Below, one piece after another: positions 10,353 to 14,989 of a stretch of DNA of 41,029 nt. The position numbers and the translations under genes are program-made. Numbering within the stretch: position 1 is the first letter of the stretch; every line of letters begins with the position of its first letter. The notes under the pieces are model-generated. The model did not search any database. It was not told the origin of the DNA and was given only the letters and a program-made list of their open reading frames with translations. The stretch is from a virus: the UHGV virus genome UHGV-0145872. One strand, given 5' to 3'.

Positions 10353-11267
10353 TTATGCCTCCAGCCCGTTAATCTGTGGCGTCGGCTCAGTCAGCCATGA
10401 AGGCGCGGCATTGCCTGTTGGCTCATCCGGCAGGTCAAATGTGGAGCGCAGGCTACGCGCTGTGCTTTCCAGTTGACAGACCAGGCCTGCCATGAAGTCT
10501 CTGGGGGTATCAATCATGTTTTCAGCACAATATGCGCACAGCGTCTCAAAAGCGCTGGACAGTCGAACGGCGATAGCAGATTCCGCCTCAACCGCTAATG
10601 CTGTCACTTCCGCCCGCAGCTTCTTAACCTCTTCATCAGGCTCAGGCGGCTGAATACGGGATTTCTTCTCCAGTCTGGTGGAGAGTGAGTCTATTTTTTC
10701 ATTTTTGTCAGCGAGTACGCGCTGTTGTGCTGCGTTGGTTTCGCGCGCTTCGCGCAGGGCCTGACGCAATTCACGTACTGACATGCGATCAACGTCGTCA
10801 AGCGTCAGGCCGGCAACTGTGCCGCCGTCGGCCAATTCATCAAGTTCTTCATTATCCAGAACCATCAGGTCGTACAGTTTGGCTTTCCCCAAAACGCTCA
10901 ACGTTGAGCGTTTTGTTGGCTCATCACCTTCTCCCAAAAACTTCATACTGGCTTGCATCATGCGGCGAGCAACTTGTGGTGCAAGTCCGAGTTCATTTTC
11001 TAAAATGTTTGTAAAATCACCGTGTGGCTCATTTTCTTTTAAGATGATCAGCCGCTTACCCGCTTCCAGCATAGATTCAGCACTCTGCGCCATATAAAAA
11101 CGTGCTTCGTGAACAATGCGATCACGTTCATAAGGCAGTCCATCACCAAACTGCTGCATAATTTCCATGCGATGCTGTGTCATAGCGTTCAAATTGACAT
11201 TGATGTTATCTGACAGCGGAACCTCAACATTCAGTTCAGTGTTAACGGGTGATTTGGTGCGTCCCAT
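10353..11267 (-). CDS. hypothetical early protein, acidic with coiled-coil segment (304 aa)
   Basis: ORF between the regulators and the transposase; RELRQALREARETNAAQQRVLADKNEKIDSLSTRLEKK looks coiled-coil; no family recognised. Confidence 0.45.
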   Translation of the reverse strand: MGRTKSPVNTELNVEVPLSDNINVNLNAMTQHRMEIMQQFGDGLPYERDRIVHEARFYMAQSAESMLEAGKRLIILKENEPHGDFTNILENELGLAPQVARRMMQASMKFLGEGDEPTKRSTLSVLGKAKLYDLMVLDNEELDELADGGTVAGLTLDDVDRMSVRELRQALREARETNAAQQRVLADKNEKIDSLSTRLEKKSRIQPPEPDEEVKKLRAEVTALAVEAESAIAVRLSSAFETLCAYCAENMIDTPRDFMAGLVCQLESTARSLRSTFDLPDEPTGNAAPSWLTEPTPQINGLEA

Positions 11268-11277
11268 TGATTACTCC

Positions 11278-11586
11278 TTACAAACGACTACCTGAAATAA
11301 CTCGTTGGTTGATTTCGTTAATACGATCCTGTGCACGCGCCATCTCGTGACTGTGAGCCATGGCGATCTGTAGTAACTGGATTCCCGGTGCGAAACGTCC
11401 GTTCTCTAATTTCATGGCCAGTCCCTCTTCAATAAGGGTATTAAGTGCTCGATTGATATTCGCTGGGGACTCCCCCAGGGCTGATGCCAGTTCACCGTTA
11501 GAAACACCGTTCAGAGCATGACCGCGTAGAGCTTTGAGTACACGTAGGATGCGGGTCCCAGAACTGGAAATATTTACTTTACTCAT
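11278..11586 (-). CDS. winged-helix HTH transcriptional regulator
   Basis: HTH-like segment VSNGELASALGESPANINRALNTLIEEGL; the longer frame 11278..11649 overlaps the upstream gene, so ATG at 11586 is preferred, but the start is uncertain. Confidence 0.45.
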   Translation of the reverse strand: MSKVNISSSGTRILRVLKALRGHALNGVSNGELASALGESPANINRALNTLIEEGLAMKLENGRFAPGIQLLQIAMAHSHEMARAQDRINEINQRVISGSRL

Positions 11587-11638
11587 GTCACATTTCCATT
11601 TTTGCAATATGTGATAACCTGTTGCATATGTGGAAAAT

Positions 11639-11827
11639 TTATGCCGCATTTGACGTGGGTTTTAATCCCAGTTTTACGGCAATTTCATGGGCTTTGCCGT
11701 AACGAGCTTTGGTCTGTCCATTGAGAACACGATAGACCTCATTGCGGCTGTAGCCGTGTTCTTCGGCCCAGCGGGTAAACGTGATACCACGCTGACGGAA
11801 GAGATTTTTAACTTGTTCGGAAGTCAT
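11639..11827 (-). CDS. small HTH DNA-binding protein, first gene of early operon (positional Ner/Cro analogue)
   Basis: 62 aa; ITFTRWAEEHGYSRNEVYRVLNGQ is HTH-like; divergent from the repressor; a sigma70-like promoter lies upstream. Confidence 0.55.
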   Translation of the reverse strand: MTSEQVKNLFRQRGITFTRWAEEHGYSRNEVYRVLNGQTKARYGKAHEIAVKLGLKPTSNAA

Positions 11828-11913
11828 TGTTGTCTCCTTTGTTGATGCAATGATGTTTGTTTTATATGTGATAGATTATGAGAACTATTATTCTCATTGT
11901 CAATGAGGTTTAT
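11828..11913. promoter_or_regulatory. divergent immunity promoter/operator region
   Basis: On the minus strand TTGACA (plus coordinates 11897-11902), a 17 nt spacer, then CATAAT (11871-11876) form a near-consensus promoter reading toward the early operon; a 15 bp palindrome CTCATTGtCAATGAG (11889-11903) overlaps its -35; a weaker plus-strand TTGATG/TATATG pair could drive the repressor. Confidence 0.5.
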
Positions 11914-12339
11914 GTGAATTTTGATTCTCTTTGCGCGTCGCGGTTCAAAGCTGAGCGTTCGCGGTTATCACTCAAGCAGGCTGAAGTAGCAGCCCTTTGT
12001 GGCGTTTCAAGAGAAATGTGGGGGAAATATGAACGAGGGGTTGCTGTTCCCGGAGGTGAGTTACTTGCAGCCTTTGCAAGAATTGGGGCCAATGTACAGT
12101 TCATTCTTACCGGGGAGTCATCAGGTATAACTTTATCACGTGATGAAATGGAGTTACTGCAGCACTACCGGCAGGCACCATTACAGGTCAAAGGTTCAGT
12201 TTTGTCGGCCTTGACTACTGGCTCCTCCAGAGAACGGGCGGAACAGGTTATTCATGGAGATGTTCTGGGGAATGTTATCAAAGGTAACGTAACCATAGGA
12301 ACAGGTGGAATAATGAACAAAAATACCAAGAGAAGATGA
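11878..12339 (+). CDS. XRE-family HTH repressor (prophage c/CI analogue)
   Basis: HTH segment LSLKQAEVAALCGVSREMWGKYERG; divergent from the early operon; alternative GTG start at 11914 has a GAGGT RBS; stop overlaps start of the next gene (ATGA). Confidence 0.65.
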   Translation: MRTIILIVNEVYVNFDSLCASRFKAERSRLSLKQAEVAALCGVSREMWGKYERGVAVPGGELLAAFARIGANVQFILTGESSGITLSRDEMELLQHYRQAPLQVKGSVLSALTTGSSRERAEQVIHGDVLGNVIKGNVTIGTGGIMNKNTKRR

Positions 12340-13322
12340 GTAAAGAGAAGCAAACAGTTAACGGGGATGTGGGTAACGTTGTCAGCGGTGATGTTACCAT
12401 TCATAACTATTCTGCTGACATACTTCCTTCGGCCCAGCAACCAATTTCGTTGCTGCAAAAACGCGATTTACACAGATTGATGGATGAATTGGTTGATCTG
12501 GGGGAAAGTAAGCGCGAGCTATGGATGACGATCCACACGAAACTTAATACCAAAACAGTTAATGAAATGACTGCGGCTGATTATCATGGTGCGGTTGAGA
12601 TCCTTCAGAGATATGCACAACAGATCCAGAATATGAAGGACTGTAATCTTCTGGTCAGCAAAATAATGGCGCTTACTGACCCTGGGTATCGTCTTGACCG
12701 TGACAGATACTGTCTGAAGCATTTCGGTACAACCCATCTTAAAGGCCTAGACAAAGAGCAGTTGCAGGCTGTGTTTGGTTATTTTGATGATCTGCTGAAT
12801 ATTCGTGATGAGAGTAAAACTCTATCACCTCCATCGGAAAGCGGTGCAAAATCAGTCGCAACTGTACCAACCAGAAGCCGGAAGCCTCATGTAGTAGTGT
12901 TGGGGGGAGTGTTAGTTCTTGTAGCAATATTTTTCGTGGGAATGATTGTGTTCGCTGGTAAATGGGGAAATGCCAAAGCAGTAGCTTCTACTGAAACCAG
13001 CGTTTTTAACATTAAAACCAACAATAAAATAATAGAAGATTCCATCCCCGCACTGCGCAGCATGTTTCCAGGGTTAAATAAGTACTCAGATGATTTCCAT
13101 TCGGTTTCAAGCTACAAGCAAAAAACGGGCTGGCATACCCTTAAATTTACTGTATCAGCAAAGGCATCCGTCCCCGAAAATTATAGTGTTAAGGGCAAGG
13201 TTTGTTACATTAACATAAGCCCTGATGGTAGTTATGCTCGGGTTTTGACTGCTCCATGTCGTTCACTGCTACTTGATCAGCAAAGCACTCCTGACAGTAA
13301 ATACCGTTTTATTCTTAAATAG
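12336..13322 (+). CDS. bitopic membrane protein co-transcribed with repressor (328 aa)
   Basis: Single TM helix (HVVVLGGVLVLVAIFFVGMIVFAG) separating an about 185 aa N-domain from an about 120 aa C-domain; start overlaps repressor stop; no family recognised. Confidence 0.5.
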   Translation: MSKEKQTVNGDVGNVVSGDVTIHNYSADILPSAQQPISLLQKRDLHRLMDELVDLGESKRELWMTIHTKLNTKTVNEMTAADYHGAVEILQRYAQQIQNMKDCNLLVSKIMALTDPGYRLDRDRYCLKHFGTTHLKGLDKEQLQAVFGYFDDLLNIRDESKTLSPPSESGAKSVATVPTRSRKPHVVVLGGVLVLVAIFFVGMIVFAGKWGNAKAVASTETSVFNIKTNNKIIEDSIPALRSMFPGLNKYSDDFHSVSSYKQKTGWHTLKFTVSAKASVPENYSVKGKVCYINISPDGSYARVLTAPCRSLLLDQQSTPDSKYRFILK

Positions 13323-13412
13323 AAAATAACAGCTGAATTACCATGGGATCAGAAAAAAGACAAAGGCGGCATCATGCTGCGTTCTGAAATTTTAATGTAA
13401 AAGGTGATGAAC

Positions 13413-13994
13413 ATGGCAGGGATTCAGGTTATCGCAGGAAGTTTTCCTAAAGGGTGGGCAAGCATGGGGTTCGGTACCATCGTGTTTGCCAAAAAACCAA
13501 AACAAGGCTTTCCTGAAAATATTGTATTAAATCTGAAAGAAGAGCTTTTATCGATTGAACTTGCGGATAGTGAAGAGGAAAGCCGTATAGGTAAGGCGGC
13601 AGGCGCAGGTTTGCTTGGTGGATTAATCTTTGGTGGTGCAGGGTTGGTCATTGGAGGTTTGCTTGGTGCGGCGGACAAGACGAAAAAAACTATCACTTTT
13701 AAGGCAATGTTTACGGGAAATAGGTTACTTCTGGCTAAAACAGATTCAAAAACTTTTGTAAAACTTCAGTCAATTGCTGCTGATAATGCCCATAACGCAT
13801 CTGTAATCAACATGAAGCAAACTAATAGGGGCGATGTTTCTTCTCGTAAACAACTAACAGAAAATCCACAGCAGCAAGACTTACCTGCGCCCGCTACAAC
13901 AGTAAAAATGACTGCCAAAGATAAGTTAGAATCGGCTCTTGGGCTGGGAATCATCGTTATAGCTGTTTGGGCAATAATACACTTCTTTTTTTAG
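13413..13994 (+). CDS. glycine-zipper membrane protein (about 193 aa)
   Basis: GKAAGAGLLGGLIFGGAGLVIGGLLGAA glycine-zipper segment plus C-terminal TM LGLGIIVIAVWAIIHFFF; AGGTGA RBS 5 nt before ATG 13413 (the six-frame ORF begins at GTG 13404). Confidence 0.5.
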   Translation: MAGIQVIAGSFPKGWASMGFGTIVFAKKPKQGFPENIVLNLKEELLSIELADSEEESRIGKAAGAGLLGGLIFGGAGLVIGGLLGAADKTKKTITFKAMFTGNRLLLAKTDSKTFVKLQSIAADNAHNASVINMKQTNRGDVSSRKQLTENPQQQDLPAPATTVKMTAKDKLESALGLGIIVIAVWAIIHFFF

Positions 13995-13995
13995 T

Positions 13996-14020
13996 GCAGC
14001 CCTTCAGGGCTGTTTCTGTT
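13996..14020 (+). terminator. candidate rho-independent terminator of the repressor operon
   Basis: GC-rich hairpin CAGCCCT..AGGGCTG followed by TTTCTGTT directly after the stop of the glycine-zipper gene. Confidence 0.4.
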
Positions 14021-14031
14021 CAGGAGGTATC

Positions 14032-14508
14032 TTAAGGATTATCCGGGGCGTTTTCCTGTTTGCCGTACTTCGGAGACGAACAACATTCTGTTGGCTGACC
14101 GGTGAGTTTACGTAACTCCTTCATGAGCAGCTCCTGATCGTAAACTGTCATCAGTGCCGCAATGGTGGCATGCAGTGCATCGGGCAGTATCCAGGGTTGC
14201 CGGCCCGTGGGGCATATAACATCCAGCAGCTCATTCGTCCGACAGATACGCTCCTCGCCGTATGACAACAGGCCCTGTCCCGTGTATTCCTCTAGCCTGA
14301 TCACTGTGCCACCCCGTGGCTTCTGCCAGGTCGTCAGATCTTCGCCATTCATACGGCGCTCATTCTCCACGTCAGCAGCATCGACAATGACGCTGTTTCC
14401 GAGTTCCTGTTTCACCATCTCTTCTATCCGCGCCAGTACGTAACTTTTACCGCTGCCCACAGGACCGGACACAGTGACAGTGATGACCGGATTCAGTGTG
14501 TGCGTCAT
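14032..14508 (-). CDS. small P-loop NTPase-like protein (158 aa), antisense to flanking operons
   Basis: Walker A GPVGSGKS near the N-terminus followed by a hydrophobic strand VIVDAAD; strong GAGGAG RBS 7 nt upstream of the ATG; convergent with the repressor operon and divergent from the late operon. Confidence 0.5.
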   Translation of the reverse strand: MTHTLNPVITVTVSGPVGSGKSYVLARIEEMVKQELGNSVIVDAADVENERRMNGEDLTTWQKPRGGTVIRLEEYTGQGLLSYGEERICRTNELLDVICPTGRQPWILPDALHATIAALMTVYDQELLMKELRKLTGQPTECCSSPKYGKQENAPDNP

Positions 14509-14638
14509 ATCGTATTCTCCTCTGTGAATAATTCATCGTTTATCCTGCACATCCCGTATCCCCGGCTCTCTTAACGCGCTTTAAAATCCTTTGCGCCCTG
14601 TATTTGTGATGCTGTCTCCACCAAACGAGGAGACACAC

Positions 14639-14989
14639 ATGAAAAACCTGAAAAAATTCATTCCCCCTGTTAAAAAACCTCGCCTCAGCGGCTGGCTGCT
14701 GACCTCAGTGCTGTTGCTGGGCACCATCGCTCTGGTCTCACCACAGCAGCTGCCTGTTGTGATCTACAAGCTGGCACTCATCACGCTGGCAGCAGTGCTG
14801 GGTTACTGGCTTGACCGTTCGCTCTTCCCCAAAGCCCGTCCCGGTCAGTACCTGAAACATGACGACAGGCTGATGGCTGAAGGGCGTTTCCCGGTACAGA
14901 CCGGCCTTCACCTGGTGTTTTCTGCTGCGTTAATCCGCCGTGCACTGATTGTTGCAGCGGTCTGCCTGGCTGTTGCGATGGGGCTTTAA
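14639..14989 (+). CDS. putative holin-like membrane protein (116 aa, 3 TM)
   Basis: Three hydrophobic helices; GAGGA RBS 7 nt before ATG 14639; lies immediately upstream of the endolysin. Confidence 0.45.
   Translation: MKNLKKFIPPVKKPRLSGWLLTSVLLLGTIALVSPQQLPVVIYKLALITLAAVLGYWLDRSLFPKARPGQYLKHDDRLMAEGRFPVQTGLHLVFSAALIRRALIVAAVCLAVAMGL

Follow-up and report, generated by a model that had tools for sequence, protein, structure and literature searches.

Introduction

Gene pairs whose products carry matching motifs at their termini are known from amyloid-signalling systems, in which 91% of the pairs are collinear and 42% overlap, often by 4 bp, and the motifs are about 25 amino acids long and rich in G, N, Q, V and I (Dyrka et al., bioRxiv 10.1101/2020.01.06.895854). 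In E. coli, the C-terminal and N-terminal amyloid motifs of Bab and Agp signal between the products of adjacent genes (bioRxiv 10.1101/2024.11.07.622273). Here we describe a gene pair of comparable layout in UHGV virus genome UHGV-0145872, a stretch of DNA of 41,029 nucleotides that is referred to below as the window. In this pair, the C-terminal tail of an XRE-family prophage repressor is copied at the N-terminus of the membrane protein encoded by the following open reading frame (ORF), ORF2, which is itself followed by a second membrane protein gene, ORF3. The copy suggests, at the level of sequence, an action of the membrane protein on the repressor, as opposed to a role as one half of a Rex-like exclusion pair.

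Several other described systems share some property with this locus. In the lambda cI-rexA-rexB operon, RexA is a soluble sensor and RexB a polytopic channel. The exclusion proteins Llp, Cor, Ltp and lactococcal Sie have a membrane or lipid anchor, and their genes lie within or close to the lysogeny module. In RseA/sigma-E and Mlc/PtsG, a regulator is sequestered at the membrane so that gene expression follows an envelope or membrane signal. Finally, Flk (Fluke/RflH) is a tail-anchored cytoplasmic inhibitor of the specificity switch of flagellar type III secretion, and the source does not define what its N-terminal domain does biochemically (PMC13344023).

Results

The repressor tail recurs at the N-terminus of ORF2

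The repressor of the window (11878-12339, plus strand; 153 amino acids as annotated) consists of a helix-turn-helix (HTH) domain, a helical region and a short C-terminal tail rich in G, N, V and I. Its stop codon overlaps the start codon of ORF2 in an ATGA that can be read directly from the sequence (12336-12339, plus strand), and this 4-nucleotide overlap is kept in all 20 loci of the window type (GDV-class). ORF2 (12336-13322, plus strand) encodes a 328-amino-acid bitopic inner-membrane protein with an N-terminal motif, an Flk_N domain, one transmembrane helix and a periplasmic domain. The N-terminus of this protein, KQTVNGDVGNVVSGDVTI, repeats the C-terminal tail of the repressor, EQVIHGDVLGNVIKGNVTI; in full, the repressor ends in ...EQVIHGDVLGNVIKGNVTIGTGGIMNKNTKRR and ORF2 starts with MSKEKQTVNGDVGNVVSGDVTIHNY. 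The tail motif of the repressor, EQVIHGDVLGNVIKGNVTIGTGG (12241-12309, plus strand), aligns with residues 2-22 of ORF2, and its counterpart in ORF2 comprises residues 6-24, QTVNGDVGNVVSGDVTIHN (12351-12407, plus strand). The alignment of the tail with the N-terminus of ORF2 has a score of 55 (z 8.4-8.6), which was matched in none of 5000 shuffles. The motif is confined to these two proteins, as no third gene bearing it was found in the window. ORF2 is linked to the repressor, and not to ORF3, because it is with the repressor tail that its N-terminus shares the motif.

The aligned residues are identical at 10 of 16 positions, six of these being specified by different codons, and the nucleotide identity is only 31/48 (65%), so that the likeness resides at the protein level. 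For the same reasons, a DNA repeat was dropped as the source of the motif likeness. The production of a repressor-ORF2 fusion by frameshifting was likewise dropped, since no canonical slippery heptamer precedes the stop codon and the genes of the P2-like pairs described below are 9-25 nucleotides apart and in various frames.

Across 18 ORF2 homologues, conservation is highest in residues 6-24 (0.94), compared with 0.82 and 0.70 in the folded domains and about 0.4 in the linkers; this best-conserved segment is nonetheless predicted by AlphaFold to be disordered. In the repressor, the tail motif is almost invariant in the homologues from Yersinia, Serratia and Salmonella despite the divergence of their HTH domains. 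The residues G, N, Q, V and I make up 65-70% of the window motifs, and K, P and L at most 9%, whereas the motifs of the P2-like pairs contain 47-52% of the former residues and many R, D and E. Two further details of composition were recorded: a repressor of the same family in L225 (IMG/VR 2913649978_000004) ends in ...SGSVQIGSIGGSYNPPAVTKRTK, which contains an RHIM-like VQIG tetrad, and in some P2-class partners NIQIG directly follows the shared motif.

The pairing recurs in P2-like and other Mu-like phages

The pairing of a repressor tail with a motif-bearing partner was found in more than 150 phage loci, in at least five motif variants distributed over Bcepmuvirus, P2-like phages and another Mu-like phage. 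Profile searching with the cytoplasmic portion of ORF2 as the query retrieved a large family of proteins of 209-215 amino acids (from E. coli, Klebsiella, Enterobacter, Serratia, Erwinia and others), which are built of an N-terminal motif, an Flk_N domain and a C-terminal anchor. An XRE repressor ORF is located immediately upstream, 9-18 nucleotides away, in all 80 of the P2-like viral contigs with a gene of this family. The repressors of this P2 class end in the tail ...SGQGNRVAGRDYNENKK, with the pattern SGxGNR(V/I)AGRD(Y/F)NExKK, and their partners start with MxVNSxGxxNRxAGRDFxE. The search was also carried out in the reverse direction, with 80 loci picked by the C-terminal region of the repressor alone, and in 76 of them a downstream ORF, usually 2-25 nucleotides away, bears the motif at its N-terminus.

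Other variants of the motif were found in locus L252 (tail QIFHGSVGQVIKGD, partner QSFHGDTGVVAGGD), in locus L253 (tail QVFNGDITGQVAGNQIIN, partner QEFNGTASGQFSARDIIN) and in L145, which belongs to a separate Mu-like phage (tail ISVSGFGNRVAGNDYHEK, partner MEVGGSNNRVAGNDFYE). Alignment scores of cognate tails and partners are 40-80, as against 14-29 between unrelated motif classes; when the window class is compared with the P2 class, cognate scores are 51-80 and cross-class scores 15-29. The variants of the window, L252 and L253, which are related, score with each other as highly as with their own partners. The window repressor and a P2-like repressor are 74% identical in the HTH domain and 33% in the tail, and the window repressor and that of a Serratia Bcepmuvirus are 52% identical in the HTH domain and 81% in the C-terminal part. 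Judged by these alignments, the tail of the repressor tracks the partner and not the DNA-binding domain.

The bodies of the partners vary and include an Flk_N domain with a tail anchor, a zinc ribbon with two transmembrane segments, and other proteins with two transmembrane segments. A hydrophobic segment above the threshold was detected in 10 of 13 sampled partners, so most of the partners are predicted to be membrane-anchored. In Escherichia phage 520873 (NC_049344; L004, 3784-4396), the Flk_N partner gene is unannotated, lies between the repressor and the integrase, and is readable only with two frameshifts; it is either a pseudogene or the result of sequencing errors. By its distribution among the sequences retrieved, the pairing is widespread in prophages of Enterobacterales. 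In a limited literature check, we found no published account of a phage repressor whose tail sequence recurs at the start of a membrane protein encoded on the same transcript, and the literature on Xuanwuvirus repressors and on the flagella biosynthesis regulator in prophages yielded nothing relevant.

The arrangement resembles the amyloid-signalling pairs (BASS pairs, Bab/Agp and the fungal HET-S/NWD2) in that the genes are adjacent and collinear, with a tiny spacing or a 4-bp overlap, and in that a motif of about 20 amino acids at the C-terminus of the upstream product recurs at the N-terminus of the downstream one. Moreover, G, N, V and I are abundant in the motif, which is disordered in the monomer model, and the motifs vary between lineages but match within a pair. 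In contrast to those systems, the protein with the C-terminal motif is here a DNA-binding repressor and not a Bell or HeLo membrane effector, and the protein with the N-terminal motif is a small membrane-anchored protein and not an NLR, a TPR protein or a nuclease. Additionally, the P2-class motif is highly charged, and the likeness is one of sequence. No mention of HTH proteins or repressors was found in the amyloid-signalling papers that were checked.

Domain structure of ORF2

In the AlphaFold model of ORF2, the predicted local distance difference test (pLDDT) exceeds 90 in a helical region (residues 31-160) and in an alpha/beta region (residues 221-328); disorder is predicted for the first 30 residues and for the linkers. 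The homologues of ORF2 form 24 clusters, all of them from Enterobacterales. A scan of genome contigs with the ORF2 alignment gave one locus. The cytoplasmic helical domain (residues ~38-155; 12447-12800, plus strand) is Flk_N-like: ORF2 matches the NCBIfam Flk model NF007987 with an E value of 2.9e-12 over residues 19-147 only, at 46.5 bits against an equivalog cut-off of 353 bits, and a BLASTP alignment with E. coli Flk gives 25% identity over 133 amino acids (E 2e-5). Precomputed matches to the Pfam family PF27202 (Flk_N), marked as weak, are available for representatives of the ORF2 clusters and of the partner family of about 209 amino acids. By sequence similarity, the helical domain is distantly homologous to the Flk N-terminal domain. 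Flk itself carries neither a repressor-like N-terminal motif nor a periplasmic domain, and the context of ORF2 is a phage immunity operon and not the chromosomal flk locus. No convincing match to the fold of ORF2 was found among solved structures (PDB) or viral structures.

The only hydrophobic segment of ORF2 in a hydropathy scan comprises residues 181-213 and contains the transmembrane helix (residues ~186-208; 12891-12959, plus strand; Kyte-Doolittle maximum 3.05). The flank TRSRKPH on the N-terminal side of this helix fits the positive-inside rule and thus a topology with the N-terminus in the cytoplasm. Two truncated forms of ORF2, P0016 and P0186, were also observed, one of them of 153 amino acids (a cluster of 53 member sequences) and the other of 208 amino acids.

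The periplasmic alpha/beta domain of ORF2 (residues ~223-328; 13002-13319, plus strand; pLDDT >90) contains two invariant cysteines, C290 and C308, and their invariance fits a putative periplasmic disulfide. The same domain occurs elsewhere as a separate protein. In the KP12-type Bcepmuviruses, it is a stand-alone lipoprotein (lipobox LSGC) encoded directly 3' of a repressor that lacks the tail motif. In L253 (1372-3349), a tail-bearing repressor is followed by a tail-anchored, motif-bearing Flk_N partner and then by a separate lipoprotein of 312 amino acids with the periplasmic domain, which amounts to a "fission" version of ORF2. In L171 (1279-3011), the tail-bearing repressor is followed by a motif-bearing partner with a zinc ribbon and two transmembrane segments, and then by a 315-amino-acid lipoprotein with the periplasmic domain. 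The lipoproteins of L253 and L171 correspond to the periplasmic domain of ORF2 with a C-terminal extension, and shorter homologues of the domain follow the partner gene in L213 and L214, in a position like that in L171. The lipobox of the lipoproteins in these sister phages is LSGC or LAGC. In the Bcepmuvirus prophage of Serratia sp. Ag1 (L017/L029, 4120-4662), a second, stand-alone lipoprotein copy is encoded just downstream of an ORF2 homologue with the fused domain.

Because sister phages encode the periplasmic domain as a separate lipoprotein, ORF2 unites, as far as sequence comparison can tell, a repressor partner and an envelope-facing module in one protein. This module could be a sensor input or could serve in superinfection exclusion. 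It resembles the exclusion proteins T5 Llp, phi80 and N15 Cor, TP-J34 Ltp and lactococcal Sie2009 in being envelope-facing, in its location within the lysogeny module and in being a lipoprotein in the sister phages; unlike them, it is fused to a repressor partner, and it matched no named exclusion family in Pfam, PHROGs or PADLOC.

ORF3 is not a conserved partner of ORF2

ORF3 (13413-13994, plus strand; start codon ATG at 13413) encodes a 193-amino-acid PH_gly_zipper protein. It comprises a split PH-like domain (residues 1-125) with a GxxxGxxxG-rich glycine-zipper insert, located in a hydropathy scan (residues 62-87; 13596-13673, plus strand), and a C-terminal transmembrane anchor predicted from hydropathy (residues 171-193; 13923-13991, plus strand). 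The order of strands and helices fits a PH-like fold, and the structure model is poor (pLDDT 36). Precomputed matches to PF27000 (PH_gly_zipper), marked as weak, exist for P0026, P0027, P0032 and P0033, which are 71-97% identical to ORF3, and for P0036, which is of partial length. A profile search of 1.8 billion representatives retrieved 208 relatives of ORF3, with a common core of about 120 amino acids that includes the glycine-zipper insert and with C-termini that are SHOCT-like, transmembrane or zinc-ribbon. In the ORF3 homologues P0030 and P0031, in-frame deletions of 11-16 residues are located inside the glycine zipper. These deletions, as well as the truncated forms of ORF2 mentioned above, may be real variation or assembly artefacts.

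A census with hidden Markov models (HMMs) covered 20 window-type ORF2 loci, 80 P2-like loci and 37 other PH_gly_zipper loci. Flk_N and PH_gly_zipper genes were found together only in the window's own lineage of near-identical E. coli sequences: ORF3 is absent from 12 of the 20 window-type loci and from all of the P2-like loci, and Flk_N is absent from all 37 other PH_gly_zipper loci. In Citrobacter, a 71%-identical homologue of ORF3 is located behind a different, CI-type repressor, with no ORF2. In Bcepmuvirus prophages of Yersinia, Serratia and Salmonella, an ORF2 homologue overlaps the repressor by 4 nucleotides and is followed by unrelated genes or by a Dam methylase gene. In unrelated viral contigs, PH_gly_zipper genes follow repressors but also occur among tail and capsid genes, as morons do. 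The sole other locus in which a motif-bearing partner lies beside a PH_gly_zipper gene is L145 (1517-3387; IMG/VR 3300017698_000229), where a Ner-like gene, an XRE repressor with the tail ...SVSGFGNRVAGNDYHEK, a 177-amino-acid partner with two transmembrane segments that starts with MKMEVGGSNNRVAGNDFYE, and a 128-amino-acid PH_gly_zipper gene were identified; this partner is not an Flk_N protein. ORF2 and ORF3 are not a conserved pair.

No significant match to a defence system was obtained in PADLOC-DB 2.0, in which the best E value for ORF2 was 0.014, ORF3 had no match and the repressor matched only generic HTH parts; moreover, neither ORF2 nor ORF3 matched a defence, toxin or exclusion family in Pfam, NCBIfam or PADLOC. 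The glycine-zipper mentions in the CoCoNuT paper are unrelated to ORF3.

A preliminary description of the window, made from the sequence alone, had listed an XRE repressor, an ATGA overlap, a 328-amino-acid bitopic protein, a 193-amino-acid glycine-zipper protein and a terminator, all of which we found where it had placed them. It did not mention what we regard as the strongest feature of the locus, the motif common to the repressor tail and the N-terminus of ORF2. It had also proposed that the locus follows the logic of lambda cI-rexA-rexB. The co-directional genes, the overlap, the single terminator, the low GC and the position in a cargo interval speak for this comparison, but the architecture is not that of RexA and RexB and the two genes are no conserved pair. 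Its further proposal, that ORF2 is a sensor paired with ORF3 as a pore, does not agree with the absence of ORF3 from the ORF2 loci given above, with the occurrence of an ORF3 homologue without ORF2 or with the lack of a PADLOC match. The statement that neither protein belongs to a recognised family is outdated, since PF27202 and PF27000 now cover homologues of ORF2 and ORF3, respectively. An exclusion role is possible for the periplasmic domain of ORF2, or for ORF3 acting alone.

The locus remains similar to lambda cI-rexA-rexB in that extra genes lie directly 3' of the repressor, in the same direction, and end at a terminator, and their expression in the lysogen is plausible from this layout. 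It differs in the lack of any likeness of sequence or architecture, ORF2 being a single-pass protein and ORF3 a PH-like protein with a zipper insert and a tail anchor. Moreover, the downstream genes form no conserved pair, and the link of ORF2 to the repressor protein has no counterpart in Rex.

Prophage setting and switch region

The neighbourhood of the cassette is a Mu-like transposable prophage of the BcepMu type (Bcepmuvirus). The 2.5-kb region is carried in prophages by 97 of 5,426 complete E. coli genomes at 99.9-100% identity (including IAI39, CE10 and DSM 101139), and Escherichia phage PhiKM (Bcepmuvirus) was the sole match in the phage collection. An inverted early operon on the minus strand encodes Mor, Gam, an ExeA-like ATPase, the transposase, a DUF3102 protein, an IclR-type HTH protein and a Ner-like protein, and the plus strand beyond the cassette carries a holin gene, SLT lysis genes and Mu-type head and tail genes. 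The repressor-ORF2-ORF3 cassette occupies the interval that separates the early operon from the lysis genes; in Bcepmuvirus genomes, this interval consists of the repressor and variable cargo. A similar layout, with the repressor, two hypothetical genes and the holin, is found in KS10 and BcepMu (PMC2628397).

The GC content of 11878-13994, which comprises the repressor, ORF2 and ORF3, is 42-46%, compared with 53-56% in the early and late regions of the prophage. Because its GC lies below that of the rest of the prophage, the composition suggests that the immunity cassette comes from a lower-GC source or was swapped as a unit. Only one terminator-like site was detected in 11200-14700, 3' of ORF3: a hairpin, GCAGCCC-TTCA-GGGCTGT (13996-14013, plus strand), with a T-rich tail that extends to 14023, located between ORF3 and a convergent P-loop gene. 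This convergent gene (14032-14508, minus strand) encodes a protein of 158 amino acids, which RefSeq names "ABC transporter ATPase". This protein covers only the first 157 of the 242 positions of phrog_3787, and its Walker-A-type matches are weak; the annotation looks like an over-annotation, or the gene may be truncated.

The repressor was assigned to its family by Pfam matches to HTH_31 (E 4.7e-7) and HTH_3 and by matches to PHROG families of transcriptional regulators and repressors, and its HTH domain is similar to that of P22 C2. Matches to antitoxin families (MqsA, HipB-like and PezA) were all far below the cut-off in Pfam and NCBIfam. The repressor gene is divergent to the Ner/Cro-like DNA-binding gene (11639-11827, minus strand; HTH_31, E 4.2e-5; "DNA-binding protein" in RefSeq), which heads the early (transposase) operon; this gene, which encodes 62 amino acids, occupies an equivalent position in all related loci. 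The switch region between them (11875-11933) contains the early promoter of the minus strand, with two operator-like repeats that overlap it. The promoter, TTGACA-17-CATAAT (11903 to 11875, facing the Ner gene), has 11 of 12 consensus matches in a promoter scan. The palindrome ATGAGAA-N6-TTCTCAT (11878-11898) is located within a repeat at 11876-11899, an imperfect second copy of which is found at 11910-11933, and an operator role of these repeats is proposed from consensus matches. The annotated start codon of the repressor, ATG 11878, lies inside the palindrome and under the -10 element of the minus-strand promoter. Because the promoter and the palindrome cover this ATG, and because the Salmonella homologue is called likewise, the true start is probably GTG 11914, which would give a repressor of 141 amino acids.

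Discussion

We tentatively read the region as an immunity operon of separable parts, in which ORF2 may well dock on the repressor tail at the inner membrane. The tail and the cytoplasmic N-terminus of ORF2 would pair directly, most likely by a homotypic beta-strand interaction as in the amyloid-signalling gene pairs, and the repressor would thereby become tethered, assembled or sequestered at the inner membrane. How active the repressor is, and with it immunity and induction, would in that case be governed by its partner and by the condition of the membrane or envelope. The periplasmic domain of ORF2 would be an autonomous, envelope-facing module, an add-on cargo that may mediate exclusion. 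ORF3 would be an independently mobile PH_gly_zipper membrane protein, which in the window lineage shares the transcript by chance and may also mediate exclusion. Physical binding, membrane tethering and an effect on lysogeny are what we infer from the anatomy, the homologies, the shared motif, the co-occurrence of the genes and their modularity. The proposed logic is similar to that of RseA/sigma-E and Mlc/PtsG, in which a membrane anchor holds a soluble DNA-binding regulator; in contrast to those systems, with which there is no homology, the contact would be made through a short, duplicated terminal motif and the regulator is a phage repressor.

Several points weigh against docking of ORF2 on the repressor. 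Four of the 80 loci picked by the repressor tail have no detectable partner. Co-variation of tail and partner inside the P2 class speaks for docking, with 9.64 of 16 positions alike in cognate pairs and 9.23 in non-cognate pairs, a difference reached by 4 of 10,000 permutations; the effect is modest, however, and may be inflated by lineage structure. Its many charged residues (R, D and E) make the P2-class motif less typical of amyloid cores. Recognition of both motifs by some third factor, for instance a protease or antirepressor, would also account for a motif that is shared and co-varies. Translational coupling means that the partner is made together with the repressor, and since constitutive sequestration would defeat repression, any binding would have to be conditional or sub-stoichiometric. 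It should also be mentioned that repressor-linked membrane genes in other temperate phages usually have exclusion functions.

A bolder version of the docking mechanism, built on the analogy with amyloid signalling and in our opinion rather improbable, would be that a membrane-anchored receptor of the ORF2 type captures or converts the repressor tail through a prion-like motif, and that the resulting templated assembly relays a membrane or envelope signal and decides between immunity and induction.

Other explanations have to be weighed against docking of the repressor tail. It is unlikely, yet deserves consideration, that ORF2 (through its periplasmic domain) and ORF3 are independent exclusion morons, each of which would act at the envelope to stop superinfection, for instance at the receptor or during DNA injection, with the motif having no bearing on repressor activity. 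The low GC of the cassette, the differing cargo at this position among Bcepmuvirus genomes, the stand-alone lipoprotein that follows a tail-less repressor in the KP12-type phages and the PH_gly_zipper genes after repressors or among tail genes in unrelated contigs are all in line with this explanation, as are the anchored exclusion proteins described in the Introduction. However, independent morons would leave unexplained why the N-terminal 20 residues of ORF2, its most conserved part, copy the repressor tail, and why 76 of 80 loci have motif-bearing partners, many of which are devoid of any periplasmic domain; nor was there a PADLOC match. That a single third factor, a host protease or a phage antirepressor, recognises both the tail and the partner, the latter acting as a decoy that buffers the turnover of the repressor, appears to us improbable. 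The motif is common to and conserved in both proteins and is exposed and disordered in the model, as a degron would be expected to be; the C-terminal tail of the Mu repressor controls its degradation by ClpXP, and lambda CIII, which protects CII from FtsH, offers an analogy for a decoy that a membrane anchor would place beside FtsH. Nevertheless, with at least five co-varying motif variants, in roughly two distinct sequence classes, the third factor would have to co-vary too, and in the window we saw no further gene that bears the motif or obviously co-varies. To our knowledge, the motifs are also unlike the known ClpX or FtsH tags.

The possibility that the pair is an amyloid-signalling death or addiction module, in which the partner is a latent membrane-damaging effector held or triggered by the repressor tail, so that loss, cleavage or hijack of the repressor leads to abortive infection or prophage addiction, is in our view more doubtful still. 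The gene arrangement is indeed that of BASS pairs and of Bab/Agp, an XRE gene with an ATGA overlap is reminiscent of type II toxin-antitoxin loci, and several partners are small proteins with two transmembrane segments and a holin-like topology. On the other hand, most partners combine a large soluble Flk_N domain with a single-pass tail anchor, a design unlike that of a pore, and no Bell, HeLo or NLR domain was found. The polarity is also opposite to that of Bab/Agp, where the effector is the small protein with the C-terminal motif, and the matches to toxin-antitoxin families are weak and below the cut-off, with no toxin family for ORF2. The least supported explanation, and a very unlikely one, is that ORF2 as sensor and ORF3 as glycine-zipper pore form a single Rex-like exclusion or abortive-infection system on the repressor transcript, because their pairing is limited to one lineage, in which alone Flk_N and PH_gly_zipper genes occur together. 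The two genes do share strand, terminator and low GC, in L145 a PH_gly_zipper gene directly follows a tail-bearing repressor and its motif-bearing membrane partner, and glycine zippers are reported in membrane-depolarising toxins; the homologue of ORF3 that exists without ORF2 and the lack of likeness to RexA, RexB or any PADLOC model argue against such a pair.

Gene pairs with paired terminal motifs are already known, and what is new is the functional setting described here, that of a phage repressor and a membrane partner. The locus also serves as a caution that repressor-linked membrane genes are not all Rex analogues, and the sequence relationships point to a likely role, when they are phage-borne, for two recent Pfam families of unknown function. 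Many enterobacterial temperate phages, including P2-like and BcepMu-like ones, have repressors without a LexA-type self-cleavage domain, and how these sense the state of the cell is poorly understood. If the contact between the repressor tail and its partner is real, it would provide such a mechanism for hundreds of prophages in E. coli, Klebsiella, Enterobacter, Serratia and Salmonella, and paired terminal motifs would be used beyond immune cell-death systems. Should the bolder version hold as well, amyloid signalling would extend from cell-death effectors to a transcription factor, and P2-like and Mu-like prophages would possess a new type of control of the prophage switch.

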